This document shows positions 42,301-61,653 of a stretch of 64,000 bases of DNA, piece by piece. Position 1 is the stretch's first letter, and every line of letters begins with the position of its first letter. The stretch spans positions 79,376-143,375 of the forward strand of contig CAWIPK010000005.1 of assembly GCA_963837925.1 (NCBI GenBank), written 5' to 3'. The stretch is from an uncultured Chloroflexia bacterium (GTDB lineage Bacteria > Chloroflexota > Anaerolineae > CG2-30-64-16). The notes under the pieces were generated by a model. It did not search any database. It had not been told where the DNA came from and saw only the letters and a list, made by a program, of their open reading frames with translations. Made by a program: the position numbers and the translations under genes.

Positions 42301-43349
42301 AGGAAGTCCACGCCGTAGATCGGGGGCGGTGGGATGCTCGGCCAGCCGTACTGGTAGGCCATGGCCTGTCGGAGATCCTCGATGACCCCGCCCTTGCCGT
42401 CGATGACCCACTGGTCGTCCCTCGACCAGCGATAGAGGATAACGGCGCGAATCGTCTGATGGCATGGCTGCCGGTTCCACCAGTCGATCTCGCCGTATAC
42501 TCGCTGCACCCAGCCAGTGTTCTTGTCGAGCCACGGTTCGCCCTGGTCTGTCTCCGTCAGGTAGACCGGCAAAGCGCGCATGGCGCGCGGTACGGCGTCC
42601 AGGAAGTCCTGGTAGCAGCGAAAGTCGTAATGCCGATGCGCGAACGGTGGCTGCATCCAGGTGTCGGTATAGACGAGGCTGGGATCTTGACCATGAGTAT
42701 AAGCGTGAAGCGCAATTCCGTCGCAATTGCTTGGTCCTATTGTCTTGAGCAGATCCTGCAGGTAGGTGACCCAGTCTCCCAGCGGGTTACCGGTGTAGGT
42801 CGTCTGGTTGTTCCATGGCCCGACCCCCGCGACCAACACCTGGTCCGCCCCATGGCCGGGCAGGGCTTTAATGGCTTTGCGACAGCGGAGGTAGCAGTCG
42901 GCATATAGTCCCGGGACGATCACCTCGCCGGAAAGTGTCGGCTTGCCACCGCCGTCGAAGCCGACGCCTGGTCTTTCGATCGGTAGGTTGGGTTCATTGC
43001 CGATGACCCAAATATGGCAGCCGGGCGAGGCAGCCGCCCAGTTCGCGCAGCGCTGCGCGAACTGGGCGTAGCGTCTGGAGTGGGGGATGGTGCCTTCGGG
43101 CGCGTAGCCGTTGTTGAGGCGCGCGATGATTCCGAAGCCTCGGTTGGCCCAGGGACTGTAGTCGTGGCCCGAATGGTCGCTCGGATCGCTTCCCAGCTTC
43201 TCGGTGAAGAGGATCCAGCCGAACAGGTTGCGCTCGGCCAAAACGCTTTCGCCGCCTGGATCGTGCAGGCCGTACAGGTATGGTGAGTCGTTCAGTGGGC
43301 GGGGCATGGCCCCCTCCATGGGTGGTAGAGCAGGCGGAAGCAACCACAA
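39363..43349 (-). CDS. Multidomain secreted cell-wall hydrolase (1328 aa). It has an N-terminal GH5-like TIM-barrel glycosidase domain, a beta-sandwich region, coiled-coil segments, three Amidase_2 (N-acetylmuramoyl-L-alanine amidase / PGRP-like) domains of which only the third keeps the Zn ligands, and a C-terminal cell-wall-binding-repeat-like tail.
   Basis: GH5-like motifs IWVIGNEPN and YLTETDQ. Q/L-rich heptad stretches (LRAQVAELQAQNSVLQKQNGSLQSQVSQLQ). Amidase_2 copy 3 has HHSA, GYHF, GHRE and TECPG. Copies 1 and 2 have NHTA, YYV/YQF, GASEF/GASDF and TQSPG. The tail reads ERIGGASFAETKQIL. Confidence 0.75.
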   Translation of the reverse strand: MWLLPPALPPMEGAMPRPLNDSPYLYGLHDPGGESVLAERNLFGWILFTEKLGSDPSDHSGHDYSPWANRGFGIIARLNNGYAPEGTIPHSRRYAQFAQRCANWAAASPGCHIWVIGNEPNLPIERPGVGFDGGGKPTLSGEVIVPGLYADCYLRCRKAIKALPGHGADQVLVAGVGPWNNQTTYTGNPLGDWVTYLQDLLKTIGPSNCDGIALHAYTHGQDPSLVYTDTWMQPPFAHRHYDFRCYQDFLDAVPRAMRALPVYLTETDQGEPWLDKNTGWVQRVYGEIDWWNRQPCHQTIRAVILYRWSRDDQWVIDGKGGVIEDLRQAMAYQYGWPSIPPPPIYGVDFLSQNTPSQMDAGQTVEVALVLRNSGCKPWDCERVRLGYQWLNSRGEPVAAAPQPALRTPLARTVQPDETVSIQARVAAPGDAGAYRLQWDLVEDSDGWFAAMKASKPVSVEVKVQQVDVSQQIAQLRAQVAELQAQNSVLQKQNGSLQSQVSQLQGLIVQLQAEIAAQLAKEGGGQLPMPPVTDITLQLPRDPAGFAKRSAGDVKYVVVNHTAVRPEVGAAAVARAQRARWPGIVSQYYVCGDGQIQQTEPLDEAVTPDLAWFYNGINIYVAGNFNETVPSPAQLSALSQLVAWLLAKYGLDESALRGASEFVATQSPGIQWMSGWRWKDMLLQQVRAILGTQTRSEQLQTGQAEHAGQRALGDQPQAPAPQARSDAGDDAVSPAAQAAESERRLILPGVEIVSLEDGATPELGRETNRPPSRAAEQLLSAPPLTDISARLPHNDGALKSRPADQIRFLVFNHTAVDATVGVERVAAAHQKRWGAILYQFFIGPDGSILQTEPIEAAVDLSQTWIAQGINIGLAGNFNEDVPAQAQMDSAARLSAWLMQEYQIPAERVKGASDFIATQSPGLQWSQGKAWKNLLLDAITRLQGSPAPAPAADDLAGLQASLLAAQNSLAALTRERDELQAETGALADDKAKLLGQVQALTVDQSELAQRIQALTGDNEQLAAQLAAMQQQISDLQACIQSLQAGPAQPAAPARAARPAIKDITDQLPKHPNLRYDTRAQGSITHLAIHHSAAPANVAPSSIAAYHVSQGWPGIGYHFLVEADGTIYQVNRLETIAYNVYNNNSCLVGICTAGNFNDVIPTPLQIERLGDLVAWLMQELGIPIERVLGHREYPESATECPGNQWQSGQKWRDLLQTRVRAVQAAAAGCASVNHYLLFWRSATDWARDDWNGAINYIARFQPTAGFSAEDARSARYVTIVGGPLGIPDQVEQDLRAAGCKVERIGGASFAETKQILDDMAAAGKEFKTFDA

Positions 43350-44957: not shown

Positions 44958-47279
44958 TTAGCTTCTGCGCCGCCGGACCGGCCACCTCACGTAACGTCTG
45001 GCCAAACGCTTCCATAGGAGCGGCTCGAGCAGCCGCCATTCTCCGGCCACTGTCCGGAGAGTCTCGGGTGCGAATTGTTGGCGCCCGTATTGTTGGGCCA
45101 CCAGCAGACCCGTCAGGCGGTTGACAGGCTCACGGGCCTCGGGCAACGCCTGACCAAACGTGCGTGCGTGCTCCAGCGGGGTCATGCTCGCTGCCCACGG
45201 GACGTGCAGGCGCTCTGCCCATCGGTTCAGCAGTTCGAACAGCCGTAACAGCAGCCCGTTGTCGAGCTGGAACAGATCGCGGTTGCGGCGCCACACGAAC
45301 AGTGCCATTCCGCCGGCCATAGCGATGCCCAGCGCCCCAAGCCCAAGGCCAAGCGCATGGCTCTTGATCCAGTCTGCCGGTCCCGCCGTCTGCGCGGTGT
45401 CCACGGTCCCAACCGGCCCCGAACCTGCGTCCCGTTTCTGCTGCCGGATGTCTTGCATGTCCTGGTTAGGATCGCTCACGCCGCCGACGGGTGGCAGTGC
45501 CTGCTCCGGCGCTTGGGTCGGCCGCAGAAGCACCGGCTCCGAGGCCGTCGGCTCGAACTGCACCCAGCCATAAGACGGGAAGAATACCTCGACCCAGGCG
45601 TGTGCATTCTGCTCGAGCACCACGTAAGTCCCGGTCTGGCTGTCATAGTTCCCCGGCGCGTAGCCTGCCACGAAGCGTGCCGGAATGCCGATCGAGCGCA
45701 GCATCATCACCATTGCGCTGGCATAGTAGTCGCAATAACCCTGCTTGACGCCGAACAAGAAGTAATCAACCCCGTCTGCACCCGGGGGCGGGGCCGAGAT
45801 CTGCGTATTGTAGGGGAACTGGCGCAGATAGGCCTCGATGGCGGATGCCTTATCGAACTCGTTCTCCTGCCTGCCCGCCACACGTTGTGCCAACTGGTGC
45901 ACGCGGGCCGGCAGTTCCTTGGGCACCTGCAGGAAGCGTTGCTTGACCCAATCCGGGTAGTCGGTATTGTCGGCCCGCAGAACGCTTGGTGGCGCCATAC
46001 TGACGGCCGAGGACACCGTGTAGACGGTATCCTTGCGCAGGCTCACGCGGCTGCGCAGCATCGACACCAGCACCTGGCCGCCGCTCGCGCTGTCATCGAG
46101 CGGCGTCACATCCGCGTTGACCGGCAGGGAAGTGCCGATCGGCGTGGGCGGGCCAAAGAGCACGTTCTGGCCGGATTGAAGGGTATGGATCGTGGCAGTG
46201 ACCGCGCCGGTCATCTCGAAGATCGGCTGCGGGAAGCGCTTGCCCTGGTCGATCTGCACCACCTGCTGGTCGGTATTCAACCATCCCGACCCCGTGTATG
46301 TGTCATAGGTCGCGCCACGCCAGTAAGCGCGCATGGGCGCGCTTGCCTCGAAGACCGGTCTGTCGGTCAGCGAGACCGGCCCGCCGAGAGTGAGTGTTTT
46401 GCCGTAGGTGCTTACGTAGGTGGTGTTCTTGTACTTGAGCGACGTAAACATGCGCTGCCAGTCTTGCTGAACCTGCTGCCAGGGCTGGTGCAGCGGCTGG
46501 ATGATGTCGTCCAGTTTTGTCCCGTTTGTGTTGACGGCGGGCAGGAACCAGGCGGCGACCACGACAGTCACGGCGAAGATCAGGCCGTTCTTCAGAAAAT
46601 CCAGGTACATGTCCGGCGCGTAGCGGATGTGCTCCATTTGCCAGCGCGCTTCGTTACGTGCCAACTCAACGCGCACGGCCAGGAGCAAGACAGCGATCAG
46701 AAACGCTACCACGTAACCGCGCACATCCTGCGGTGCATAGTAAGCGTTAACCAGGATGCCGACGCCGGCCGGCAGCATCGCCTGCCAGACGCGCTGATGG
46801 CGGAAAAGCGTCCAGATCGCGAAGAAGGCGATCCACCAGCCAATGATGCACAACTGGATCACGAATACCCAGTTATCGCCGCTCGCCCGGCCGCTGACAA
46901 GGGCGTAATACCACTGTGAGTAGTGATGGGCCAGGACGATCAGGCCGTCGTGCACGTCTGAGGTTTGCACCAGGGTGCGGACCAGGCCGGTCGCGATCCA
47001 TGGGATGCTGCCCAGAAAGCCGTAGAAGATCGAAAAGCCACTGCCCCAGCGGGTCAGCGCGAGCAAAAACGCAAAAAGTCCGCCACCCAACACAGCGCTC
47101 TGCACGAGTCCCAGGCCGTCCGTCCAGCCCGCAGCTTCGACCGAGGCGGCGACGGTGAACAGCATCGCCAGGGCAAGCAGCAAGGCCAACCAACCTCCGC
47201 CGCGGTACAGCCTTTCGGCGGGACTGGAGGCCGGCGGCAGCTCGGTTATGACGGGCAACGAATGCGTATTAGCAGCCAC
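44958..47279 (-). CDS. Transglutaminase-like domain membrane protein (TgpA/DUF3488-DUF4129 type).
   Basis: N-terminal multi-TM region. Transglutaminase core GYCDYYASAMVMMLRSIGIPARFVAGY ... HAWVEVF. C-terminal TM plus DUF4129-like tail. 773 aa. Confidence 0.8.
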   Translation of the reverse strand: MAANTHSLPVITELPPASSPAERLYRGGGWLALLLALAMLFTVAASVEAAGWTDGLGLVQSAVLGGGLFAFLLALTRWGSGFSIFYGFLGSIPWIATGLVRTLVQTSDVHDGLIVLAHHYSQWYYALVSGRASGDNWVFVIQLCIIGWWIAFFAIWTLFRHQRVWQAMLPAGVGILVNAYYAPQDVRGYVVAFLIAVLLLAVRVELARNEARWQMEHIRYAPDMYLDFLKNGLIFAVTVVVAAWFLPAVNTNGTKLDDIIQPLHQPWQQVQQDWQRMFTSLKYKNTTYVSTYGKTLTLGGPVSLTDRPVFEASAPMRAYWRGATYDTYTGSGWLNTDQQVVQIDQGKRFPQPIFEMTGAVTATIHTLQSGQNVLFGPPTPIGTSLPVNADVTPLDDSASGGQVLVSMLRSRVSLRKDTVYTVSSAVSMAPPSVLRADNTDYPDWVKQRFLQVPKELPARVHQLAQRVAGRQENEFDKASAIEAYLRQFPYNTQISAPPPGADGVDYFLFGVKQGYCDYYASAMVMMLRSIGIPARFVAGYAPGNYDSQTGTYVVLEQNAHAWVEVFFPSYGWVQFEPTASEPVLLRPTQAPEQALPPVGGVSDPNQDMQDIRQQKRDAGSGPVGTVDTAQTAGPADWIKSHALGLGLGALGIAMAGGMALFVWRRNRDLFQLDNGLLLRLFELLNRWAERLHVPWAASMTPLEHARTFGQALPEAREPVNRLTGLLVAQQYGRQQFAPETLRTVAGEWRLLEPLLWKRLARRYVRWPVRRRRS

Positions 47280-47424: not shown

Positions 47425-47456
47425 CAGTCTTGTTTTTCCGCCAAAGGAGTATGTCT

Positions 47457-48569
47457 ATGGACAAAGTGGAAATCGGACGGATGTTGAGCCTGCTGACACA
47501 GGCCGACGGCTTGTCAGGGGCCGAAGAGCGCGTCGCCGCCGTGGTCCAGGATCTCGCCCGCCCCTACGCGGCTGAAGTGCGCGTGACCCCACTCGGCAGC
47601 GTCATCGCCTTCAAGCCGGGGACGGGCAGTGGTGAGCCGGGTCCACGCGAAACCGGGGCACCGGCCCGCGGCCGGGTGATGTTGGCGGCTCACATGGACG
47701 AGATCGGCCTGATCGTCACCAGGGTCGAAGGAAGCTTCCTGCACGTCGCTCGGGTCGGTGGCGTGGACCCTCGCTCCCTGCTTGCCCAGGAGGTGACGGT
47801 CTATGCCTCCGGTCCGGGTGCTTGTCGGCACCCGGACGGTTTAGCCGGCTATATTGGCAGCCGTCCGCCGCACGTGCTCTCCGAACAGGAGCGCTCCAAA
47901 GTGGTGGCGCTCGAGTCATTGCGGATCGACGTAGGCGCGCCGTCCATCGGCGCCCTCGTCCGCGTCGGCGATCGCGTCGCGGTGCGCGGCGCCTACAGCG
48001 AACTGCTGGGTGGCCGGGTGGTCAGCAAGGCCTTGGATGACCGCGCCGGCGTGGCGGCGATGCTCGGGGCGCTGGGCTATCTCGCCGAGATGCAGCACAG
48101 TTGGGACGTCTATGCCGTCGCCACGATCCAGGAGGAAGTTGGCGAAATGGGCGCGGCGACGGTCGCGTTCGGCGTCGCACCGGACGTCGCGATCGCCCTC
48201 GACGTGACCTTCGCCGACACGCCGGGCCTCGACGATGCCCAGACGGTCGAAATGGACAAAGGCCCGGTCATCAGCTGGGGGCCAAACCTACACCCCGGCA
48301 TGGTCAAGAAACTCCGGGAGGTGGCCGACGGTATCGAGCTCGGCTATGTCAGCGAGCCGGTCCCCGGCCATTCCGGAACCGATGCCTGGGCCATTCAAGT
48401 CAGCCGGGCAGGGGTGCCGACCGCCCTGGTGGGCATGGCGGTCCGCTACATGCACTCCGCCACCGAGATGGCCGCGCTGGCGGACGTTGACCGGACCGCG
48501 CGCTTGTTGGCAGCCTTTGTCAGCCGGCTGGACGGCGAGTTTCTCGCTCAGCTGCCGGAGGAGGTTTAG
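47457..48569 (+). CDS. M42-family (TET/FrvX/YsdC-type) aminopeptidase, paralog 1.
   Basis: HMDEIGLIVT, ALDDRAGVAA, EEVG and D-V-A-I-A-L-D motifs of M42 peptidases. ATG at 47457, 6 nt after AAGGAG (ORF open from 47430). Confidence 0.85.
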   Translation: MDKVEIGRMLSLLTQADGLSGAEERVAAVVQDLARPYAAEVRVTPLGSVIAFKPGTGSGEPGPRETGAPARGRVMLAAHMDEIGLIVTRVEGSFLHVARVGGVDPRSLLAQEVTVYASGPGACRHPDGLAGYIGSRPPHVLSEQERSKVVALESLRIDVGAPSIGALVRVGDRVAVRGAYSELLGGRVVSKALDDRAGVAAMLGALGYLAEMQHSWDVYAVATIQEEVGEMGAATVAFGVAPDVAIALDVTFADTPGLDDAQTVEMDKGPVISWGPNLHPGMVKKLREVADGIELGYVSEPVPGHSGTDAWAIQVSRAGVPTALVGMAVRYMHSATEMAALADVDRTARLLAAFVSRLDGEFLAQLPEEV

Positions 48570-48572
48570 GGC

Positions 48573-49649
48573 ATGAGCATGGTCGATCTACGTGGCCTGC
48601 TGGAAAGATTGTCAAACGAGATGGGTGTCTCGGGCCGCGAACGGGCCGTGCGCACGCTCGTGAAGAACGAGGTAGAAGCCCTGGTCGATCGCCTGGAAGT
48701 CGATGCGCTGGGCAACCTGATCACCTACAAGGCGGGTGATGGCCCTGAGCCGCGATTGCGGATCATGCTCTCGGCTCACATGGACGAAGTCGGTTTCATG
48801 ATCACCAAGGTCGAGAAAAACGGCCTCTTGCGCTTCGCCGGCGTCGGTGGGCCTGACCGGCGCACGCTCTTGGGCAAGCGGCTGATCATCGGCGACGAAC
48901 GACTGGTGGGCATCATCGGGGCCCAGCCGCCTCATCTGCTGAACCGCGATCAGTGTGATCGGAGCGTCCCTATCGAAGAGCTCGCCATCGACATCGGGGC
49001 CACCAGTGACAAAGAGGCCGGTGGCAAGGTGAAGGTCGGCGATTATGCCACTTTTGCGACGCGTTTCAGCGTGCTCAGCGAGGACCCGGCCTTTCCGACT
49101 GTCCGCGGCAAGGCTTTCGACGATCGCGTTGGCTGCAGCGCCCTGATCGGCCTGCTGGCCGAGCGATACCCAGTTGACATAGTCGGCCTCTTCAGCGTGC
49201 AGGAAGAGGTCGGCTTGCGGGGGGCGCGCGTGGCGGCCTACCGAACTGAGCCGGATGCGGCAATCGCCCTGGAAGGCAACACCTGTGACGACACTCCGAG
49301 GCCGCCCGACGAAGAGGGCACGCCTGTGACGCGCGTCGGTGACGGCCCGGCCATCACCATCATGGATCGCAGCTTCTTCACGCATCCTGGCATGCTTCGT
49401 CTGTTCCGAGAGACGGCGGAGGCGGAGGGCATACCCATCCAGTATCGGGCGCCGGGTTTTGGCGGCACCGACACGGGCGCGATCCACCTCAGCCGGGCGG
49501 GAGTGCCATCCATCCAGGCCGGGATCCCGTGCCGCTATATCCACGGCCCGGCCAGCATCCTGAACCTGAACGATCTGACCAACACCGTGCGCCTGGTCGG
49601 TGCAGCGCTGCAGCGCATCGACCGCGGCTACCTGATGCGCCAAGACTAG
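48573..49649 (+). CDS. M42-family aminopeptidase, paralog 2.
   Basis: HMDEVGFMIT, AFDDRVGCSA, QEEVGLRGA, AIALEGN. Starts 3 nt after paralog 1. Confidence 0.85.
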   Translation: MSMVDLRGLLERLSNEMGVSGRERAVRTLVKNEVEALVDRLEVDALGNLITYKAGDGPEPRLRIMLSAHMDEVGFMITKVEKNGLLRFAGVGGPDRRTLLGKRLIIGDERLVGIIGAQPPHLLNRDQCDRSVPIEELAIDIGATSDKEAGGKVKVGDYATFATRFSVLSEDPAFPTVRGKAFDDRVGCSALIGLLAERYPVDIVGLFSVQEEVGLRGARVAAYRTEPDAAIALEGNTCDDTPRPPDEEGTPVTRVGDGPAITIMDRSFFTHPGMLRLFRETAEAEGIPIQYRAPGFGGTDTGAIHLSRAGVPSIQAGIPCRYIHGPASILNLNDLTNTVRLVGAALQRIDRGYLMRQD

Positions 49650-49664
49650 CGATAGGAGTGACTT

Positions 49665-50666
49665 ATGCAAGAGTTGACTGGCCGCCTGACGGGGGCCTTC
49701 GGCATATCGGGCCACGAGGATGAGATCCGTACGGTGATTCGCGAAGAGATCGCGGGGCTGGTGGACGAGCAGCATGTCGACGCGATGGGGAACCTCGTCA
49801 CCCTGCGCCGCGGCCAGGGCGGGGGCAGGCGGGTCATGCTGGCGGCCCACATGGACGAGATCGGCGCGATGGTGAACTACGTCGACGAGCAAGGCTTCAT
49901 GCGCTTTGCCCCGGTGGGCGGGCTTTATCCCTCGATCTGCCTGGGACAGCAAGTCCTGTTTGCCGACGGTACGGTTGGCAGCATCGGATTGGACGGACGG
50001 GCAGACCGCAACCAGGCGCCCAAGCTGACCGATCTCTTCATTGACGTCGGGGCCGGCTCCCGTAGTGAGGTCAAGCAGAAGCCGGGCGATCCGGCCGTTT
50101 TCCGCCAGCGCTTCGCCGCGCAGGGGAACGCCTGGTTTGCGCCCAACCTGGATGACCGTATCGGCTGCGTGGTTCTGATCCAGTTGCTGCGCGAGCTCAA
50201 GGGGAAGGACATCGCCCACGACATCTACGGTGTTTTCACTTCACAGGAAGAGGTCGGCACCCGCGGCGCGGCGACTTCCGCCTATGCCGTCAATCCAGAC
50301 ATGGCGATAGCGCTTGACGTTACCCTTACCGGCGATACGCCGCACGCCAATCCGGCCATGGAGGTGTACATGGGGCGCGGCGCGGCGATCAAGGTCCAGG
50401 ACAGCGGCATGATCGGCCACGTCGGGCTGAACCGTCTGCTCATCGCCGCCGCTGAGCGCTCGCAGGTGCCCTACCAGATGGAGGTGCTGACGGGCGGCAG
50501 CACCGACGCGCGTGCCATGCAGATCGCACGCGAAGGCGTGCCGGCCAGTGCGATCTCCGTGCCCAGCCGGCACGTTCACAGCCCATCGCAGATCGTCGAC
50601 CGGCGCGATGTCGAGGCCTCTGTCGCCTTGCTGGTGTCGTTGCTCGGGGCCCCGATACAGCTCTAG
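49665..50666 (+). CDS. M42-family aminopeptidase, paralog 3.
   Basis: HMDEIGAMV, NLDDRIGCVV, QEEVGTRGA, AIALDVT. RBS GGAG. Confidence 0.85.
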   Translation: MQELTGRLTGAFGISGHEDEIRTVIREEIAGLVDEQHVDAMGNLVTLRRGQGGGRRVMLAAHMDEIGAMVNYVDEQGFMRFAPVGGLYPSICLGQQVLFADGTVGSIGLDGRADRNQAPKLTDLFIDVGAGSRSEVKQKPGDPAVFRQRFAAQGNAWFAPNLDDRIGCVVLIQLLRELKGKDIAHDIYGVFTSQEEVGTRGAATSAYAVNPDMAIALDVTLTGDTPHANPAMEVYMGRGAAIKVQDSGMIGHVGLNRLLIAAAERSQVPYQMEVLTGGSTDARAMQIAREGVPASAISVPSRHVHSPSQIVDRRDVEASVALLVSLLGAPIQL

Positions 50667-53228: not shown

Positions 53229-55439
53229 TCAGCACTCGCGTACCCAACCCGGTCCCGGTTTGGCCAGGGTATCGGCCAGATGCCGCCAAGCCATGAACGC
53301 CTCTTCCTTGGGCCGCCCGGTGGTCCAGTCCATCTGTGCCAATGCATCGGCGAGAGGAGTAATCTCGACGCCCCGCCCGTGAATGCCGACCACGCTCGCG
53401 CCCGAACGTCCGGCCTGGATGTCTTCCATCAGCTGCCTGACTGCCCATAAACCGAGCCGGGTGCCCTGGATACGGTCGAAAGCGGTCGGTACGCCGCCAC
53501 GTTGCAGGTGCCCCAGGATTACGGTGCGCACGTCGAACGCCCCGCCGGCCTCAGCCTCCAGCACCTGGCGTACGAAGGTCGCATCATAATAGGGTGACGC
53601 GCCTTCGGACATCACCACGATACTCAACTTCTTGCCCCGCTCAAAGCCCTCGCGCAACCTTTCCACATCCGCCTCGAGGCACTTCAGGGTGAGCCGGTCT
53701 TCTGGCAGCAATTCCATCTCGGCCCCGGTCGCGATGCCGCTGGACAGCCCCAGGTAGCCGCACTCGCGCCCCATCACCTCGACAACGTATGCCCGGTGAG
53801 CTGCCCCGGCGGTGTACTTGATCTTGTCCACGGCGTCGGTGATATTGTTGAGCGCGGTGTCGGCGCCGATGCATACCTCCGTCGCCGGCAGGTTATTGTC
53901 AATCGTTGCCGGCACACAGATGGTCGGGATGTTCAGTTCGGGGTGTCTCTCGCGCGCCGCCACCAGTTTGTCGACCTCGGTGTAAGTGTCCAGCCCGCCC
54001 ACCGCGATCAGCCCGCGGATGTCCCACTTGCGTATGGTGTCCGCGACCGACGCGATCTCCTGCTCGGTCAGAACGTGGCGTACCGCGCCCAACTCGCTGC
54101 CGCCCTGCGCCATCCAGGATTGGACGTCCATCCACTGCAGATCCCAGATGTCTTCCCGTGCCAGCCCCGCGAAGCCGTAGCGCACGCCCACCACATCTTG
54201 CCCTTCGTTCATCGCGTAGCGCAGCACCGTTCGCAGAACGGCGTTCATGCCCGGCGAATCCGGACCGCCGGTCAGCATGGCGATACGTCCGCGCTCACCT
54301 ATCTCCTCGCGTGGTTGCGCGCGGCTGAGGGTCTTCAGGAGGTTCAGGGCATCGATGAAACTGCTGCCCCGCAATTCCAGCGCTTGCTCGAAGCGCCCCT
54401 GCTCGATCTCGACGTTGACAGCCTGGCTCTTGCTGATCACTTCGCTGAGGGGAGTGGCCACCGGCCGGTTATGGAGCAAGCCGATCATCACCGGCGTCGC
54501 GTCCGGCCCGGCCAGGTAGTCGACCGCCGCGGCACCCAGCCGGCTGGCGAGGACCCGGTCGAACGCGCTCGGGGAACCGCCCCGCTGTACGTGACCGAGC
54601 ACGGTCACGCGTGCTTCCATCCCGGTTCGCGCGCGCAAGACTTCCTGAATCGTCTCCGCACGGATGGGCAAGCCATCATTGTGACGCGCGCCTTCGGCAA
54701 ACAGAATGATGTCGTGCCGCCGCCCGGCAGCCCGGCCGTGTTTCAAGGCATCTGCCATGCGAATGTGCCAGCGCGCATCCATTTCCTCTTCGGGGATCAA
54801 CACCCAGTCCGCGCCGGTGGCGACTGCGCCCATCAATGCCAGGTAGCCGCAGCGACGGCCCATGACCTCGACAATGAAGGTGCGCTGGTGCGCGTCAGCC
54901 GTCGACGTCAGCTTGTCAACCGCCTGCACGATCGTGTTCAGGGCCGTATCGGCGCCGTGGCTCATGTCCGTGCCGTACAGGTCGTTGTCGATCGAGCCGG
55001 GCAGGCCAACGATGAGGAATGGCTGAGCGCCGGTCGCCTTCTCCACCGGGATCACCTCGGTCGCCGCCAGCGCCTTGAGATGCTCTTCCCACTCCTCGTG
55101 CAAGACCAGCGCGCCGGTCAGCGAGCCGTCGCCGCCGATCACCACCAAACCATCAATGCCGGCTTCGACCAGGTGGCGCACGGCCTGGCGCCTGCCCTCC
55201 AAGGTGCGGAAGGCATCCGAGCGGGCCGTGCCCAGGACTGTGCCGCCCGCTTGCAGGATGCCGCCGGCGCTGCGCCAGTTGAAGGGCTCGAAATACCGGC
55301 CACCCATGAACACGCCTTGCCACCCTTCGTGGATGCCGACGACTTCCATCCCTTTATCCAGGGCGCAGCGCGTCACTGCCCGGATGCACGCATTCATGCC
55401 CGGAGCATCGCCGCCGCTGGTTATGATGCCGATGCGCAT
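53229..55439 (-). CDS. Tandem-duplicated (eukaryote-like, ~736 aa) 6-phosphofructokinase. The N-terminal half is catalytically intact and the C-terminal half is degenerate.
   Basis: Start MRIGIITSGGDAPGMNACIRA after GGAGG. N-half has GGDGSLTGA, PGSIDNDL and MGRRCGY. C-half has GGPDSPGMNA, GGLDTYT, PATIDNNL (catalytic Asp -> Asn) and MGRECGY. The ORF is open upstream to 55472. Confidence 0.85.
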   Translation of the reverse strand: MRIGIITSGGDAPGMNACIRAVTRCALDKGMEVVGIHEGWQGVFMGGRYFEPFNWRSAGGILQAGGTVLGTARSDAFRTLEGRRQAVRHLVEAGIDGLVVIGGDGSLTGALVLHEEWEEHLKALAATEVIPVEKATGAQPFLIVGLPGSIDNDLYGTDMSHGADTALNTIVQAVDKLTSTADAHQRTFIVEVMGRRCGYLALMGAVATGADWVLIPEEEMDARWHIRMADALKHGRAAGRRHDIILFAEGARHNDGLPIRAETIQEVLRARTGMEARVTVLGHVQRGGSPSAFDRVLASRLGAAAVDYLAGPDATPVMIGLLHNRPVATPLSEVISKSQAVNVEIEQGRFEQALELRGSSFIDALNLLKTLSRAQPREEIGERGRIAMLTGGPDSPGMNAVLRTVLRYAMNEGQDVVGVRYGFAGLAREDIWDLQWMDVQSWMAQGGSELGAVRHVLTEQEIASVADTIRKWDIRGLIAVGGLDTYTEVDKLVAARERHPELNIPTICVPATIDNNLPATEVCIGADTALNNITDAVDKIKYTAGAAHRAYVVEVMGRECGYLGLSSGIATGAEMELLPEDRLTLKCLEADVERLREGFERGKKLSIVVMSEGASPYYDATFVRQVLEAEAGGAFDVRTVILGHLQRGGVPTAFDRIQGTRLGLWAVRQLMEDIQAGRSGASVVGIHGRGVEITPLADALAQMDWTTGRPKEEAFMAWRHLADTLAKPGPGWVREC

Positions 55440-55483
55440 CTCGACCTCCAAGATCGTCCTGAAAGCGAACAACCGATGACGGA

Positions 55484-55608: not shown

Positions 55609-58600
55609 CTAGCCTTGGGCAGGCGCTCGGCCCAGTCGCCGGCCCGGCAGCCTGGCCCGAATCACCGCAAAGTCGTCGCCGCTGAAGGTGCGCGTGATGA
55701 GGAGGGCTACCAGGTAGGCCAGGAAGCCGGCCAGAAGCCCGAGCGCCAGGGGCAGGCCGGCCCGGTTCATCCCCCAGACGATGACCACGTCGAGTATCGC
55801 TCCCAGAATCGGGCGCCCGGTCAACGCCAGCCACGGCATCGGCGCCACGTAACGGTGCACGGCCCAGGCGAACGGGATGAACAGCGACAGTTCGGCCGGG
55901 ATGAGGATCGCCGATGCGGCCAATGAGCCATAGCGCGGCACGAAGAGAAGGTTGGCCAGGGTGCTGAAGATGACGCCGATGAGGAACGCTTTGGTGAGGA
56001 AGCGCTGTTGATTCACCGCGATCAGGACATACTGCGTTACGGAGTTTATGAAGCCGATCGGGATCGACCAGATCATGACGCTGAAGCTGGTGGCCGAATC
56101 GGGCAGGAAGGCGGTCCCGCCGGCGATCTGGACCAGTGGGGTGGCGGCGAAAGAGGCAAAGACGGCGATCGGCAGCGCGACGATCAGCAGCAGTTGGACG
56201 GCCAGCCGGTAGGCCTTCACCAGCCCATCGCCGCCCGCGTAGGCGTACCGGCTCATCAACGGGAAAATCGCCTGCGTCGAGAAGGCGGGGATCACGTTCA
56301 GGCCGTCCAGGAACTTGACGCCAACCGAAAAGATACCCAGGGCGGTCGCGCTGGTGGCGCCGCGCAGCACGAATTGGCTTATGCGCCAGAAGACAGTGGC
56401 CAGCAGATTATTGATCATGAGCGGCGCCGATTCGCGCAGCATCTCGCCTTGCAGCTTCCAGTCGAAGCGCAGTGGAGCCGCGGCCCAGCTCAGGCGAGGC
56501 CGGAACGATGTGCGCCTGCTGACCGGTTCGACGCCCTCGAAGGCCGGCTCCGCCGCGCCGTGCCCCTTCTGCCGGGGTTTGAGCACCTTTTGCTCCAACA
56601 CCACGTACAACCAGACCACCTGCACGATGTTCATGAACAACGAAACAACGGTCAGGCCGACAAAACCGAGGCTCAACGGGGGCAGCAGGATGAGCGCGCC
56701 CAGCGCTACCTTGCCCACCGTCGTCGCCGTGGCCAGCGCGGCCGGGTATTCCATTTCTTCATAGGCATTGAAGACAGCGCTGATCGCGTCCGCGATATTG
56801 GCGAAGAACAGCGCCACCGCGAAGATGGCGATCGCCTGGCCCTCAGGTCCGCTCAGTTTGCCCCCGGCCCGGTAGGCCATTGCGGCGAGGAAGATGATCG
56901 GCAGGCTGGCGAGCCAGAGGAGAGTGCGCAGGCCGAGGACATTGACCATGTAGCGTCTGCCCTGGCTACGGTCACGCGCAACGTCGCGCGTTAGTAGGGT
57001 ACCCAGGCCCCAACGGATAAGGATGTCGAACACCATGTAGAAGTTGATGGCGTTGACGTAGCTCCCCTCGCCCTCCGGGCCGAGGATACGCAAGCGCAGC
57101 ATTGTGAAAGCGAAGTCGATGCCGCGGTTTACCAGTTGCATCACCACCAGCACCACGGTGTTCTTGGCCGCGGTGCCGACTTCGCTGCGCATCCCGCGGT
57201 AATAGCGGTTCCAGGCCCAGGCCCCGGCCAGCAGCGCGAGCGTGACCGCGCACAAAAAGCTTAGGTAGATGCCCAGCAGAAAGCTCTGTGGCGAGTAAAC
57301 GAAGCGGATTGTCCATTGGCCCGCCCGGTCGAGATAGACGGCTCTGAAGGTGCCATCTGCCCGATAGAGCGTCATCTGCTTCTCTACCGAATCACCCGAC
57401 GCGCTCACGCCCTCGCCTTGGGCGCCGAAAGGCCGGATGTAAGCTTTCCACCCGGGGAAGAAATTCTCAGTGAAGACCAACCAACCCCGGTCGCTGACGT
57501 TGACGTCGACCATAACCTGGCGCATGCCGCGCGCGCTGATGCGCGCCTCATGCACTTGCGGTGCGGACGGCGCTGGGACCGCATCGGCGTTCAGCCCCTC
57601 CAGAACGACCGTCTGGGCCGGGTCTACCTCTTGCAGCGCGTCCAGCGCGGCCTGCTGATCTGGGGCTGCCTCCGCCGTCGAGGCGATGAACACGCGTGGC
57701 AAAGCCCTGGTGTTCTCGTAGACGCGCACCTCTCCCGCCACCGGGCGATGATCCGTCGGATAGGCCAGCCGGTAACCCTGGTTGACCACGTCCTGAGTCG
57801 TCATCACGAAGCGCACGCCGAGGAGGTTCAGCAGCCCGTTGTCAAGCGCATCGCTCCATTCCCCGCTGCCAGGTCCATAGAAGGGAGCAATGCGGTTGTA
57901 GAGCAGCTCACCCTGGTTCTGGATGCGCTGCATGTAGGCCACATACTGGCTCGGGATCATCGAGTCGTAGCCGCGGATGTCCTCCAGCCCATAGGACATG
58001 GCCGCGTTAGCGTTCAGCAGCTTCTCGCCCGGTGCGTCGTAGGTGGTAAAACGCCAGGGCTGGCTGTTGTCGATCATGCCCTGCAACCAGCCGATGACAG
58101 GCGGCTTATAGGCCAGAAGCCGCGGATCACTGGCCGGGTTGAAGGCGTGCCCGAACAACCAGAGGTCGAGTATCAGCACGCCGATTGCCGCGATAGGCCA
58201 GGCTCGCAGGCGGGGGCTGCCTGGTTTGGGAGCATGTCCTGCTCTGCCGCCCGTAGCAGTGCCCGAGAACAGGACAGCCGCGGAGAGCGCGGCCAGCGCG
58301 CCAAAGCGCGCCAGGCCGGACGCCTCGTAGCTCCAGGCCATCGCGCCGTCGGCGAAGCCCCGCGTGCGCGCCAGTTCCGAGGTCGCCAGCAGCCTATCGC
58401 CCAGGGCCACGAACGGGCCGGGCAGGATCAGGCTGAGTGCGACGGCCGCCAGGCTACCCAGGCCCGCCAGGGCCGTCAACGCTGCCAGCACGCGTACCGC
58501 GCGCCGCAAGTGGGGGGAGAGACCCCCGCGCAGCAGCAGATCCAGGCCAAAGCCGGCGAGCAATGCCATGCTGAGCGTGTACGGAAACACCCAGCGGAAA

Positions 58601-60075
58601 GCCGAATGTAGCTGATTGTAGCCGGGCACCAGGTAAAAAAGCACCGCGTAGACCGGCGTGCCGAAGGCGAAAAGAAGCGAGAGGACCGCCAGAACCAGGA
58701 ACCCCGTCTTCGGACCGGATGGAAGCCCGCTGGACAGGCTCGGACCGGGCAGAGACGAGCCGTCGGTCCTGTTCCGCCGCAGGCCGGCCCAGCTCGTCGT
58801 TAGCACGGAGAAAGACGCCACCAGCGCCAGCAGCAGCGTCAGCAGGCCGAGGTAGTTGGCGCCCTCGACGTAGTTCTTGATGCCCCAGTCGATCGCACCG
58901 TTCGTGATGCTCTTCAGCGGTTGGCCGAGCGCGTTCAGGTTGACCGGCACCCATGACCGCTGCCAGATATCGAAGTAACTGTGACTGGTGGGATTGCCGA
59001 AGAAATCAGGCAGGACGAAGGTGAGGATCTGCTTTTTCGGCCACGCCCAGTTGATGACCTGCTGCAGGTCGGCCGACCCTTGCCGGAAGTTTTGCGCGGC
59101 CAGCTCGTACATCGGCACGAGCTGCACTCCGGCCAGACCCATGCCGAGCACCACCATCCCCAACAGCCAGGCCGCGGCCTGCAGCGTGCGGGCCCAGCGT
59201 GCCTTGGGGGACAGACCAGCAGAACGCAGTCGCAGCCAGCTGCCGCCCAGCCGCCAGGCCGCGTAGAATGCGCTGACCATCAGCACGTAATAGGTGATTT
59301 CGACGTGGCCGGCCAGGGCTTGCAGCCCGAAGAGGACCGCACCCAAGGCCACATACGGGATTGGGCCGGCGGGGCCACGCTCGCGACGGGCCGGCGCGGT
59401 CACACTCTGCCCTGGCTGCCCGACTCCCGCCTCCTCCCTGCCCGTCACGACCGTCCGCACCACCAGCTCGATCGCGGCCAGGATCAGCGGCAGCCAGGCC
59501 GCGGCTGCGATGATCATGGTGAAGTTCACGCTGCTGATGAAGAAGCCGGAAAAGCTGAAGGCCACAGCCGCGAGGAAAGCCGCCGGCCGGCGCTGGCCGA
59601 GCAGACGGGCGAACAGATAGGTCCCTGCCGCGGCCAACCCCAACTGGAGCCAGGTGAAGACGCCATACGCGAGCCAGAGTGGCAAGACGTAGAAGACGAC
59701 GCTCAACGGATAGAGGGCGGAGTGCTGACCGGCGGCGAGAAAGGGTATCCCGGCGAACAGCCGCGAGTTCCAAAGTGGGATCTGACCGTCGCTCAAAGCG
59801 TCGCGCAGCAGTGACTTCCACTGGTAGTTTTCAAGCACGAGATCGCTGACCAGCGGATTTTGCGGCACGCCCGCGTCAAAGGCAGCGGACGCTCCGGCCC
59901 AAGGCTCAAAGGCGTACAGGTTTTCCGCGGGAAGAAGAGTTTTGCCGCCGAGGGTTTGCGGCCCAAACCAGAGCAGGGGCAGCAGGAGCAGCAAAAGCAG
60001 TATCAGGGCGTCTTGCCTGCGCGACGATTTCAAGTCAATACCTGAGATTCGCGATCTCTCTTCGGGCGACCTCAC
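55609..60075 (-). CDS. 1488-aa fusion: N-terminal YfhO-family GT-C-fold membrane glycosyltransferase (~900 aa) plus C-terminal Wzx/MOP-type polysaccharide flippase domain (~500 aa).
   Basis: N-terminal part has the YfhO pattern (ENYQWKSLLRDALSDGQIPLWNSRLFAGIPF ... many TM helices). C-terminal part matches Polysacc_synt/MOP flippases (LRLRILGPEGEGSYVNAINFYMVFDIL ... 12+ TM helices). It is a single uninterrupted ORF with a GTG start that overlaps the upstream GT2 gene by 41 nt. Confidence 0.75.
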   Translation of the reverse strand: MRSPEERSRISGIDLKSSRRQDALILLLLLLLPLLWFGPQTLGGKTLLPAENLYAFEPWAGASAAFDAGVPQNPLVSDLVLENYQWKSLLRDALSDGQIPLWNSRLFAGIPFLAAGQHSALYPLSVVFYVLPLWLAYGVFTWLQLGLAAAGTYLFARLLGQRRPAAFLAAVAFSFSGFFISSVNFTMIIAAAAWLPLILAAIELVVRTVVTGREEAGVGQPGQSVTAPARRERGPAGPIPYVALGAVLFGLQALAGHVEITYYVLMVSAFYAAWRLGGSWLRLRSAGLSPKARWARTLQAAAWLLGMVVLGMGLAGVQLVPMYELAAQNFRQGSADLQQVINWAWPKKQILTFVLPDFFGNPTSHSYFDIWQRSWVPVNLNALGQPLKSITNGAIDWGIKNYVEGANYLGLLTLLLALVASFSVLTTSWAGLRRNRTDGSSLPGPSLSSGLPSGPKTGFLVLAVLSLLFAFGTPVYAVLFYLVPGYNQLHSAFRWVFPYTLSMALLAGFGLDLLLRGGLSPHLRRAVRVLAALTALAGLGSLAAVALSLILPGPFVALGDRLLATSELARTRGFADGAMAWSYEASGLARFGALAALSAAVLFSGTATGGRAGHAPKPGSPRLRAWPIAAIGVLILDLWLFGHAFNPASDPRLLAYKPPVIGWLQGMIDNSQPWRFTTYDAPGEKLLNANAAMSYGLEDIRGYDSMIPSQYVAYMQRIQNQGELLYNRIAPFYGPGSGEWSDALDNGLLNLLGVRFVMTTQDVVNQGYRLAYPTDHRPVAGEVRVYENTRALPRVFIASTAEAAPDQQAALDALQEVDPAQTVVLEGLNADAVPAPSAPQVHEARISARGMRQVMVDVNVSDRGWLVFTENFFPGWKAYIRPFGAQGEGVSASGDSVEKQMTLYRADGTFRAVYLDRAGQWTIRFVYSPQSFLLGIYLSFLCAVTLALLAGAWAWNRYYRGMRSEVGTAAKNTVVLVVMQLVNRGIDFAFTMLRLRILGPEGEGSYVNAINFYMVFDILIRWGLGTLLTRDVARDRSQGRRYMVNVLGLRTLLWLASLPIIFLAAMAYRAGGKLSGPEGQAIAIFAVALFFANIADAISAVFNAYEEMEYPAALATATTVGKVALGALILLPPLSLGFVGLTVVSLFMNIVQVVWLYVVLEQKVLKPRQKGHGAAEPAFEGVEPVSRRTSFRPRLSWAAAPLRFDWKLQGEMLRESAPLMINNLLATVFWRISQFVLRGATSATALGIFSVGVKFLDGLNVIPAFSTQAIFPLMSRYAYAGGDGLVKAYRLAVQLLLIVALPIAVFASFAATPLVQIAGGTAFLPDSATSFSVMIWSIPIGFINSVTQYVLIAVNQQRFLTKAFLIGVIFSTLANLLFVPRYGSLAASAILIPAELSLFIPFAWAVHRYVAPMPWLALTGRPILGAILDVVIVWGMNRAGLPLALGLLAGFLAYLVALLITRTFSGDDFAVIRARLPGRRLGRAPAQG

Positions 60076-60820
60076 GGTGGCGTCGTCGCATCTTGATGAC
60101 GTCTACGGCCCCCTGGAGTTTTACCCGGACGCTCATTTTCGACATGCCGATGCGCCGATCTTCGAAGTAGATCGGGATCTCCTTGATTCGATAGCTCAAG
60201 CGCTCCGCCAGATAGGTCATTTCCACCTGAAAGGCGTAACCATTGGACTGGATATGATCCAGTCCAATGCCCAGCAAGGTGGCGCGGCGCCAGCAGCGGA
60301 ACCCGGCCGTGATGTCCTTCGTCTTCAGTTGCAGGATCTGGCGCGCCCAGACTTCATTGGCCCACCAGCTCAGCAATCGACGCTCCCAACCCCAGCGCTC
60401 GTCCAGTTGGCCCCCGCTCACGTAGCGCGAGCCAATCACCACGTCGCAATCCTGGATGGCTTGCAGCATGATTGGGATAGTGCTCGGCGAGTGCGAGAAG
60501 TCGGCGTCCATCTGAATGATGAAGTCGGCCCCAGACTGCAGCGCGCAAGTGAAGCCAGCCACGTAGGCGCGCCCCAGCCCCTGCTTCTGCGCGCGGTGAA
60601 GGACCAGGATCAGACCGGGAAAACGCTCGGCAAGGGTGTCCGCGATCTCACCCGTTCCGTCGGGCGACCGGTCATCCACGATCAGCAGGGTGAGACCGGG
60701 GATGCCGAGAGACAGTAATTCCCCCACCAGGTTCGGGAGGTTGGTCGCCTCGTTGTAGGTGGGTACGACGACCGTAGTATTAGTGCCAGGGGGAAGAACG
60801 GGAAGTTCGTCGGGACGCAT
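60035..60820 (-). CDS. GT2-family polyprenyl-phosphate glycosyltransferase (Dpm1 / dolichyl-phosphate beta-glucosyl- or mannosyl-transferase-like).
   Basis: VVVPTYNEATNL ... LLIVDDRSPDGT ... QMDADFSH ... typical of Dpm1/CsbB-type GT2 enzymes. 261 aa. Confidence 0.85.
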   Translation of the reverse strand: MRPDELPVLPPGTNTTVVVPTYNEATNLPNLVGELLSLGIPGLTLLIVDDRSPDGTGEIADTLAERFPGLILVLHRAQKQGLGRAYVAGFTCALQSGADFIIQMDADFSHSPSTIPIMLQAIQDCDVVIGSRYVSGGQLDERWGWERRLLSWWANEVWARQILQLKTKDITAGFRCWRRATLLGIGLDHIQSNGYAFQVEMTYLAERLSYRIKEIPIYFEDRRIGMSKMSVRVKLQGAVDVIKMRRRHREVARREIANLRY

Positions 60821-60829
60821 ATGTAAGCA

Positions 60830-60858
60830 ATTCTACCATCAGCGTCGCGAAACGTCAA
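60830..60858 (-). promoter_or_regulatory. Sigma70 promoter for the GT2 / YfhO-Wzx operon: -35 TTGACG (60858..60853), 17-nt spacer, -10 TAGAAT (60835..60830). Predicted TSS is ~3-4 nt upstream of the ATG, so the transcript is near-leaderless.
   Basis: The reverse complement reads TTGACGtttcgcgacgctgatggTAGAATtgcttacatATG. There is no room for an SD. Confidence 0.5.
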
Positions 60859-60903: not shown

Positions 60904-60932
60904 TTGCCATTTCACGGCCGCTGCAGTATAAT
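60904..60932 (+). promoter_or_regulatory. Sigma70 promoter for the response-regulator gene: TTGCCA (60904-60909), 17-nt spacer, TATAAT (60927-60932).
   Basis: Sequence agTTGCCAtttcacggccgctgcagTATAATccc. RBS GGGAGAGG before ATG 60973. Confidence 0.55.
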
Positions 60933-60972
60933 CCCAATACAGGGCCGCACGGTGTGCCGGGGGAGAGGACAC

Positions 60973-61653
60973 ATGGGACGCGATCTCAACACTAGACCGG
61001 TCGAAATCCTCTACATTGGCCAGCCAGACCCAACCCACGAGAAGCTGTGGGAGCAATTGCCCCGAGAGGGAATATCGGTTGAGTTTGCGCGAACGCAGAA
61101 GGCGGGTCTCGATCTGACTGCTGATCTGCAACCGCAGGTGGTGGTGATTAACCTGGTGGAAGCTCAGTTCTCCGGTGAACGTCTCTGCCAGACCCTGGGC
61201 CGCCGATTGCCCAGCGCCCGCCGCCTGGTCATCGCGGATCGGAACTCTGCCACGTCCAAGGTCCCGTGCGAACAGCGTCTTGTCCGTCCGTTCACGCTGC
61301 GCAAGCTGCGGGATACGGTTTTCAAGCTCCTCGAGGAAGCCGCTCCACACCTCGTCACTGCGGGTTGTCTGCAACTGGACGTGGTCGCGCGGGTAGTGAC
61401 CGGTCCCAAAGGGCAGCAACACCTCACTCCCAAGCAGTGCAACCTGCTGACCGTCTTCATGCAGCATCCGAACCAGGTAATCTCGCGCAAAGACCTGATG
61501 GACCGGATCTGGGACACTGCCTATCTGGGGGACACGCGCACGCTCGACGTCCACATCCGCTGGCTGCGCGAGAAGATCGAAACTGACCCCACCCGCCCCA
61601 ACTTGCTCACGACCCACCGCGGGGTGGGCTACGTCCTGAACGTTCCCGCCTGA
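60973..61653 (+). CDS. OmpR-family winged-helix transcriptional regulator with an atypical (pseudo-)receiver domain.
   Basis: The C-terminal trans_reg_C region is clear (LTPKQCNLLTVFMQHPNQVISRKDLMDRIW ... TRTLDVHIRWLREKIE ... LTTHRGVGYVL). The receiver-like N-terminus has Asn at the phospho-acceptor position (QVVVINLVEAQ instead of ...D...) and R instead of the conserved K (RPF). The ORF is open from 60904; the ATG with RBS is at 60973. Confidence 0.8.
   Translation: MGRDLNTRPVEILYIGQPDPTHEKLWEQLPREGISVEFARTQKAGLDLTADLQPQVVVINLVEAQFSGERLCQTLGRRLPSARRLVIADRNSATSKVPCEQRLVRPFTLRKLRDTVFKLLEEAAPHLVTAGCLQLDVVARVVTGPKGQQHLTPKQCNLLTVFMQHPNQVISRKDLMDRIWDTAYLGDTRTLDVHIRWLREKIETDPTRPNLLTTHRGVGYVLNVPA

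Follow-up and report, generated by a model that had tools for sequence, protein, structure and literature searches.

The question raised by this locus is whether the synthesis of a polyprenyl-linked sugar, its passage across the membrane and its transfer to an acceptor outside the cell can be encoded by only two genes, one of which joins a flippase to a transferase. The locus lies in the window, the whole 64,000-nucleotide stretch analysed here (G+C about 65%), which comes from an uncultured Chloroflexia bacterium (contig CAWIPK010000005.1, positions 79,376 to 143,375), and consists of a gene for a glycosyltransferase of family 2 (GT2) followed on the same strand by a very long open reading frame (ORF). 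The first-pass annotation had taken this frame for a fusion of a YfhO-like glycosyltransferase of the C fold (GT-C) with a Wzx-type flippase of the MOP (multidrug/oligosaccharidyl-lipid/polysaccharide) superfamily, and had read the pair as a three-step pathway compressed into two genes. Both ORFs that it had reported, of 1488 and 261 amino acids (aa), are present with exactly the ends it had given, and the long one is divided as follows, the helix and junction being placed from AlphaFold2 (AF2) models and Wzx proteins being grouped with the polysaccharide transporters (PST).

55609..60075, minus strand: GT-C-MOP fusion gene, maximal ORF, 1488 aa, GTG start at 60075, stop codon 55609..55611
60035..60820, minus strand: GT2 gene, 261 aa, ATG start
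58141..60033, minus strand: GT-C membrane domain, aa 15-645, about 13 transmembrane helices
57286..58140, minus strand: extracytoplasmic domain of the YfhO-like half (aa 646-930), built mostly of beta strands
57160..57285, minus strand: last GT-C transmembrane helix (aa 931-958) and short basic cytoplasmic junction (W955...AKN972)
55612..57159, minus strand: MOP-superfamily (Wzx/PST-type) flippase domain, aa 973-1488

The fusion is real and occurs widely among Chloroflexota. A protein search listed more than 120 full-length homologues (about 1400-1500 aa, 48-100% identity), all of which carry Polysacc_synt, and most of 120 have a precomputed match to the YfhO family PF09586 as well. They are deposited as 'oligosaccharide flippase family protein' or 'O-antigen/teichoic acid export membrane protein', and the former annotation hides the transferase half. 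A survey of loci, with one genome per species, gave 224 stretches encoding a relative, of which the best 80 were examined. All 80 are from Chloroflexota, namely Anaerolineales, Caldilineales, and Caldilinea and Litorilinea metagenome-assembled genomes (MAGs), and in every one the fusion occupies a single reading frame, open for at least 1340 aa in 77 and cut at contig ends in the other three; at least 77 related species-level genomes encode it. The continuity of the ORF, judged from the homologous loci, and the occurrence of the fusion in other genomes, both of which the first-pass annotation had proposed as checks, were thus borne out, and no stop codon or frameshift was seen to part the two halves. 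That the long ORF could be an assembly chimera, hide a stop codon or frameshift behind a sequencing error, or carry one half as a decaying remnant is given next to no chance. The 80 single-frame loci come from separate assemblies, 46 representative clusters (50% identity) reach at least 1290 aa, and the junction is kept in sequence and length. The halves are equally conserved, with identities to homologues of 50-85% for the N-terminal and 50-89% for the C-terminal half, and many charged or polar residues are invariant in each. An assembly or frameshift artefact was ruled out by the more than 120 homologues together with the single-frame loci.

The N-terminal half is placed by profile matching in a distant branch of the YfhO family (PF09586) of putative GT-C enzymes. 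The fusion matches the Pfam model over aa 119-208 with 33.3 bits (cut-off 28.5), at profile positions 74-165 of 835, and relatives match it collinearly at positions 73-170, 280-595 and 755-832 of 835 with 40-50 bits. In P0139 it is the last stretch before the C-terminus, residues 780-863, that aligns to positions 755-832 of this hidden Markov model (HMM). The structure predicted for the half by AF2 has a GT-C fold and resembles solved GT-C enzymes, with the following scores in structure comparison:

AftD: 19.5
STT3B: 18.9
PglB: 18.5
Pmt2: 18.2
Pmt4: 17.1
ALG9: 14.4
ALG12, AglB and AftA: between 14.3 and 13.8
ArnT: 13.7

With PF09586 above its cut-off and a GT-C fold in the model, the YfhO-like nature of this half, as first annotated, was confirmed. 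Its topology, derived from hydropathy and the positive-inside pattern of basic loops together with the modelled helices, has the N-terminus inside, 13 transmembrane helices, a 286-residue outside domain (aa 646-930) and a final helix (931-958) leading back to the cytoplasm. The outside domain is a hydrophilic stretch of 286 residues between transmembrane helices, modelled as beta strands with a predicted local distance difference test score (pLDDT) of about 80-93. This agrees with the layout described for YfhO of Bacillus subtilis, with about 13 transmembrane helices and a sizeable extracellular domain ahead of the last one (PMC5836110). Candidate catalytic acids are D78 and E82 of the motif 'SDLxLEN' in the first outside loop (aa 43-120), which are invariant in 12 and in 24 sequences. 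Another conserved outside loop, the second (aa 321-408), has two invariant acids, D357 and D369. For YfhO itself no conserved motif has been defined (PMC5836110).

By profile and by modelled fold, the C-terminal half is assigned to the PST/Wzx-type MOP proteins and not to MurJ. It matches Polysacc_synt (PF01943) over aa 970-1277 with 74.8 bits (cut-off 28.2), covering profile positions 2-273 of 274, and Polysacc_synt_3 (PF13440) over aa 1202-1324 with 43.4 bits (cut-off 23). A profile search of the PDB with a 12-sequence alignment found nothing relevant, no solved MOP relative being detectable by profile HMM, and folds were therefore taken from the AF2 models. The model of the C-terminal half (aa 928-1488; pLDDT 74.6, predicted template modelling score, pTM, 0.73) is all-helical, with about 14 helices after the terminal GT-C helix as counted from its DSSP list, and the domain has two lobes and an Arg-rich C-terminal tail. 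In Foldseek the target-normalised TM-score reaches 0.76 for MurJ, at E=2.7e-8, and lies at 0.69-0.77 for WzxE, each with a probability of 1.0; MATE transporters scored lower. The near-complete PF01943 match, the PF13440 match above cut-off and the MOP fold sustain the earlier claim of a full flippase domain, and no mismatch to flippase models was encountered. Invariant charged and polar residues are numerous in this half, some of them within the membrane, and this intramembrane conservation argues for an active transporter.

Structural likeness to MurJ gives rise to another explanation, in which the C-terminal half is a lipid II flippase equivalent to MurJ, the YfhO-like half is an accessory cell-wall glycosyltransferase, and export is coupled to wall glycosylation. 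The C-terminal half does align with the 14-helix MurJ structures over about 530 columns, more than with the 12-helix WzxE, and several homologues carry a secondary match to the MurJ family PF03023 (P0118, 38 bits at a cut-off of 27.4). These matches are weaker than those to Polysacc_synt, which is the top Pfam family in every member, and the window protein has no MurJ match, to PF03023 or in NCBIfam, at E<=0.1. Fourteen helices are moreover a common architecture in Gram-positive PST/Wzx proteins, and the conserved partner of the fusion is a polyprenyl-phosphate-sugar synthase, not a mur or fts gene. A MurJ equivalent is for these reasons considered very improbable.

The two halves share one helix in the models, 931-958 of the N-terminal model being helix 2-31 of the C-terminal one, and the junction that follows is 18 or 21 residues long in all of 12 aligned homologues (51-69% identity to the query). 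Since it is cytoplasmic and basic, the MOP domain is predicted to begin and end in the cytoplasm, as free-standing MurJ and Wzx do. The modelled fusion, with about 28 helices in total, is topologically sound, and the topology prediction that the first-pass annotation had called for is consistent throughout, from the YfhO-like half over the cytoplasmic junction to the 14-helix MOP domain.

The gene upstream most likely encodes a polyprenyl-phosphate glycosyltransferase resembling Dpm1 and the dolichol-phosphate-mannose (Dol-P-Man) synthases (DPMS), in agreement with its first annotation. The product matches Glycos_transf_2 (PF00535) with 96 bits, and its best solved relative is the Dol-P-Man synthase of P. 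furiosus (5mlz, E=2.2e-28, aa 15-235); the segments 'VDDRSPDG' (DD) and 'MDADFSH' (DAD) align to DPMS motifs. The next solved relatives are ArnC-type synthases of undecaprenyl-phosphate sugars (E about 3e-9). Homologues of 247-297 aa bear the JGI name dolichol-phosphate mannosyltransferase, and from these automatic names and the best solved match mannose is possibly the sugar. The protein has no transmembrane helix, its maximum 19-residue hydropathy (1.72) falling inside the Rossmann core, and its recruitment to the membrane may come about by docking on the fusion protein or by way of a basic C-terminal helix. Anchorless synthases of the DPM1 type are known in human DPM1, which is accompanied by DPM3, and in the catalytic domain of mycobacterial Ppm1. 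Like these, the Chloroflexota enzyme is a catalytic GT2 of about 260 aa that lacks a transmembrane helix and must be recruited to the membrane.

Synthase and fusion are linked across genomes. Of the 80 loci, 74 extend far enough upstream to be informative, and in 68 of these an orthologue of the GT2 (56-75% identity) precedes the fusion on the same strand. The GT2 is the only near-universal conserved neighbour of the fusion across the 80 loci. Flanked by a divergent regulator upstream and a phosphofructokinase gene downstream, the GT2 gene and the fusion gene of the window form a two-gene operon. The 41-nt overlap of the two genes that had been annotated at first holds for the GTG start of the longest ORF. 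The identical database protein P0001 has 1474 aa and begins with 'MKSSRRQD', as most homologues likewise do, and this start corresponds to a TTG at 60033, 1 nt past the GT2 stop codon TGA at 60037..60035 (TGAcTTG). The TTG is the probable true start of the fusion, giving a product of 1474 aa. The overlap thus probably reflects no more than the choice of the longest ORF, and the two genes would abut. Either arrangement, abutting or overlapping, fits co-translation from one transcript and translational coupling, and no promoter-like site was found between the two genes by consensus match.

Among the loci surveyed, L045 has upstream of its fusion a GT2 split between two reading frames within 5197..5864: positions 5197-5541 match aa 22-136 of the query, and positions 5535-5864 match aa 135-244. 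This indicates a frameshift, due to a sequencing error or to the gene of this MAG being a pseudogene.

From the architecture and the linkage it is judged rather probable that the locus encodes a two-gene, three-activity lipid-linked glycosylation module in which flippase and transferase are fused. The three-step pathway in two genes thus stands as the best-supported explanation, in which the parts are observed and their function is deduced from them. At the cytoplasmic face the soluble Dpm1/DPMS-like GT2 would use a nucleotide sugar to load polyprenyl monophosphate with a hexose, and the C-terminal Wzx-type MOP domain would carry the polyprenyl-phosphate sugar to the outer leaflet. There the N-terminal YfhO-family GT-C domain would pass the sugar to an extracytoplasmic acceptor, which may be a cell-wall polymer, a lipid or a protein; its outside loops and beta-rich outside domain probably form the active site and bind the acceptor. 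The short cytoplasmic junction, conserved in length, would keep the two membrane domains side by side, so that the flipped donor would diffuse a few nanometres or not at all. We infer, and do not observe, what the flippase domain transports, which sugar and acceptor take part and whether the donor is channelled; the direct hand-off of substrate proposed in the first-pass annotation may likewise follow from the fusion.

Described multi-component transmembrane glycosylation systems combine a GT-A synthase, a flippase and a GT-C transferase as separate polypeptides (PMC8035078), and the Chloroflexota locus likewise brings three such activities together, given the 68 of 74 informative loci with the GT2 upstream. 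In B. subtilis, CsbB/GtcA/YfhO glycosylates lipoteichoic acid, and GtlA/GtcA/GtlB is the counterpart in Listeria (PMC5836110, PMC7389260). As in the csbB-yfhO operon, a GT2 gene for a polyprenyl-phosphate sugar stands immediately upstream of a YfhO-family GT-C gene, and the GT-C protein, like YfhO, has a membrane part of many helices followed by a large outside domain and one last transmembrane helix. The flippase, in contrast, is a 14-helix MOP domain fused to the GT-C enzyme and not a 4-helix protein of the GtrA type, the GT2 lacks the two C-terminal transmembrane helices of CsbB and GtlA, the host belongs to Chloroflexota, and the YfhO model is matched only distantly, with 33 bits over 90 residues.

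Closer in its flippase is the GacI/GacJ/GacK/GacL system, the model for side-chain N-acetylglucosamine addition in Streptococcus pyogenes, with a Wzx-type flippase and a GT-C enzyme (PMC8035078; bioRxiv 10.1101/180810). It shares with the Chloroflexota locus an anchorless cytoplasmic GT-A enzyme, a Wzx-type (MOP) flippase proposed for a polyprenyl-monophosphate sugar and a GT-C transferase, but GacK and GacL are separate proteins whereas their Chloroflexota counterparts are one polypeptide. GacI also requires the small membrane protein GacJ, and no gene resembling GacJ or DPM3 was conserved beside the Chloroflexota GT2 among the clustered flanking ORFs of at least 100 aa, a bound below which smaller genes are missed. 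In Haloferax volcanii, AglD/AglR/AglS add the final mannose of the S-layer N-glycan (PMC3871713). Here too a Dol-P-Man-type synthase is combined with a membrane protein proposed to be, or to assist, the Dol-P-Man flippase and with a mannosyltransferase acting outside, again unlike the fusion in being encoded by separate genes. AglR is a homologue of the Wzx/MOP proteins. The first-pass annotation had regarded Wzx as an unusual partner for YfhO, and this view is tempered by GacI/J/K/L and AglD/R/S, which are precedents for a Wzx-type flippase with a GT-C enzyme.

A fusion of another kind was predicted by Makarova et al. for archaeal AglD, a GT2 joined to an MprF-like flippase domain (PMC5898192). 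There the predicted flippase domain is of a different family and joined to the synthase, whereas the Chloroflexota MOP domain is joined to the transferase. With MurJ (5t77/6nc6/6cc4) and WzxE (9g9n) the Chloroflexota domain shares the MOP fold and two-lobe architecture, and with WzxE also the Arg-rich C-terminal tail, but unlike them it is fused behind a GT-C domain, and its substrate would be a monosaccharide linked to a monophosphate and not a diphosphate-linked glycan. What is new is that flippase and GT-C enzyme are one polypeptide, the kind of pathway itself being already known. No description of a GT-C-MOP fusion was found in the literature searched, reviews included, so that the arrangement can still be called undescribed in print, as had been supposed, but hundreds of such proteins are present in the databases.

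Several findings weigh against the two-gene module for monophosphate-linked sugars. The established substrates of Wzx and MurJ are glycans linked to polyprenyl diphosphate (PP), not monophosphate sugars, and the flippase roles of GacK (10.1101/180810) and AglR (PMC3871713) are only proposed. The closest GT-C folds of the N-terminal half include oligosaccharyltransferases, which use PP-linked donors, and the GT-C fold can therefore not separate the donor types. The outside loop with D78 and E82 is modelled at low confidence (pLDDT <50). The GT2 stays below every equivalog cut-off of NCBIfam, its top partial matches being AglJ (52 against 325), PpgS (49 against 370) and ArnC (43 against 529). 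Six loci (L026, L030, L033, L048, L051 and L058) keep an intact fusion of 1365-1453 aa with no GT2 adjacent to it. Other genes stand upstream in these loci. L026 and L030 have the same gene there, about 700 aa long and oppositely oriented, and the other four are marked by a distinctive N-terminus 'SELKRD...PLLFFGP'. By these features the loci seem to form two related groups, which suggests that the GT2 was moved or lost independently about twice. Finally, at least 12 clusters hold YfhO-like proteins that are unfused, by which the GT-C half can work without an attached flippase.

These unfused relatives were found in an exhaustive search of the N-terminal half against 1.84 billion representatives, which gave 21274 matches at E 1e-3, 8462 at 1e-10 and 803 at 1e-30. 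Among the best 150 matches, which were examined, 46 are fused proteins of at least 1290 aa, and no fewer than 12 others are unfused and look complete, at about 810-915 aa and 33-48% identity. Most of these align to nearly the whole N-terminal half, and they end a few residues past its last helix. Completeness was confirmed on contigs for P0145, P0147 and P0161, and nine more were judged from their C-terminal tails only. Four further candidates were excluded: a contig end interrupts P0138, P0143 belongs to the fused proteins but is truncated, and the tails of P0144 and P0149 resemble the fusion junction. In a neighbour-joining tree of the GT-C half, star-like and with no support values, the unfused proteins stand at about six places among the fused ones, a hint that the fusion is ancestral and the MOP half was lost repeatedly. 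P0145 and P0147 stand alone on their contigs. P0161 (870 aa) is found in a polysaccharide cluster (L087, 5371..15780), where a divergent PMT_2 gene precedes it and a 661-aa protein with Wzy_C and tetratricopeptide repeats (TPR) and four complete genes of families GT4 and GT2 follow, a fifth being cut at the end of the locus. No MOP gene and no counterpart of this GT2 was found near any of the three, an absence that speaks for the linkage of the GT2 to the fusion, and at L087 there is no MOP flippase within 16 kb.

The known substrates of the MOP flippases lead to an alternative in which the MOP domain flips a PP-linked oligosaccharide or repeat unit and the fused GT-C domain processes the flipped molecule. 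The GT-C domain could decorate it, with a donor made by the GT2 and flipped by another protein or spontaneously, or it could transfer or polymerise it en bloc, in the manner of an oligosaccharyltransferase, Wzy or a ligase. In both versions the fusion would couple the flipping of the acceptor or PP-donor to its processing, and not the flipping of a monophosphate donor. MurJ and WzxE are the best structural matches of the C-terminal half, and STT3B, PglB and AglB among the GT-C matches use PP-linked donors. The unfused P0161 has Wzy_C-TPR, PMT_2 and several GT4/GT2 genes about it, and in the pathway proposed for the secondary cell wall polysaccharide of Bacillus anthracis flipped subunits are glycosylated further outside the cell (PMC8035078). 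Genomic context points the other way. The only near-universal partner of the fusion is a Dpm1-like synthase of monophosphate sugars, no phosphoglycosyl transferase or repeat-unit glycosyltransferase is conserved near the fusion across the loci, and the operon of the window is flanked by a regulator and a phosphofructokinase gene, not by polysaccharide genes. The product of the GT2 would also be left without a flippase in the module. Flipping of a PP-linked molecule by the fusion is on this balance held to be unlikely.

The module for monophosphate-linked sugars may be extended to a single machine of synthase, flippase and transferase, in which the anchorless GT2 is docked on the cytoplasmic side of the fusion and the MOP domain flips a polyprenyl-monophosphate hexose, a lipid like Dol-P-Man, straight into the lipid-binding groove of the GT-C domain. 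This extension is put forward tentatively and may well prove too strong. If true, it would provide the first sequence-defined, hard-wired MOP-class flippase for monophosphate-linked sugars, and a natural 'Rosetta stone' for a flippase and a GT-C enzyme as a physical unit, with a bearing on the flippases of Dol-P-Man and of dolichol-phosphate glucose (Dol-P-Glc) and on RFT1. Which proteins carry polyprenyl-monophosphate sugars across membranes, and whether they hand them directly to GT-C enzymes, is poorly settled, and the flippase candidates of GtrA and Wzx type rest mostly on genetics. The identity of the Dol-P-Man and Dol-P-Glc flippases is an open question, the former being, to our knowledge, still unidentified in eukaryotes, and the role of RFT1, a eukaryotic MOP protein, is disputed. 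That a MOP-GT-C fusion is conserved, with a Dpm1-like synthase tightly linked to it, argues strongly on comparative grounds that both activities act on the same lipid, and as a single polypeptide the fusion is a practical target for electron cryo-microscopy and for reconstitution of the interface between flippase and transferase. It also flags an uncharacterised and apparently widespread pathway of envelope glycosylation in Anaerolineae and Caldilineae, whose cell-surface chemistry is, as far as we know, largely unknown.

The operon has the following surroundings in the window:

60830..60858, minus strand: promoter-like site 10 nt ahead of the GT2 start codon ATG (TTGACG-17-TAGAAT, with TG)
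60904..61653, plus strand: OmpR-type regulator (Trans_reg_C, aa 173-245), divergent, upstream of GT2
53229..55472, minus strand: phosphofructokinase, 747 aa, two phosphofructokinase-domain stretches (643 bits), directly downstream of the fusion

Promoter-like sites were scored by consensus match only, with 2 found against 0.8 expected in shuffles. A promoter-like site overlaps the TTG at 60904, and the real start of the regulator is therefore probably M24, near 60973. The regulator may control the operon; divergent homologues are present upstream in 26 of the 80 loci, about a third, and in L050 one further match, the 27th, falls just downstream of the fusion on the same strand. The layout of regulator, GT2 and fusion was also seen in L089, whose fusion relative has 48% identity. 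In the receiver-like region of the window regulator, inspected by eye, 'ILYIGQPD' and 'VVVINL' stand where the acidic pocket and the phospho-acceptor Asp are expected, and Pfam finds Trans_reg_C only; the protein may be an atypical regulator that is independent of phosphorylation. In 17 related loci a phosphofructokinase homologue of about 740 aa stands downstream of the fusion. The long opposite-strand ORFs gave no significant Pfam match and were rejected as shadow ORFs.

Elsewhere in the window, two tandem paralogues of 1183 and 1155 aa (4621..8172 and 8176..11643, both on the plus strand) have an N-terminal PMT_2/PMT domain, that is a GT-C domain like those of protein-O-mannosyltransferases, and C-terminal NHL beta-propeller repeats. 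They are further candidates for GT-C enzymes dependent on polyprenyl-phosphate sugars and could share the lipid of the operon. An unusually large wall hydrolase of 1328 aa is encoded at 39363..43349 on the minus strand. It combines three stretches of Amidase_2 (N-acetylmuramoyl-L-alanine amidase) with long coiled-coil-like regions and has an Ig-like segment as well. A TgpA-like membrane transglutaminase of 773 aa (TgpA_N, Transglut_core and DUF4129) lies at 44958..47279 on the minus strand, and three tandem genes for M42 glutamyl-aminopeptidases (379, 358 and 333 aa) occupy 47430..50666 on the plus strand.

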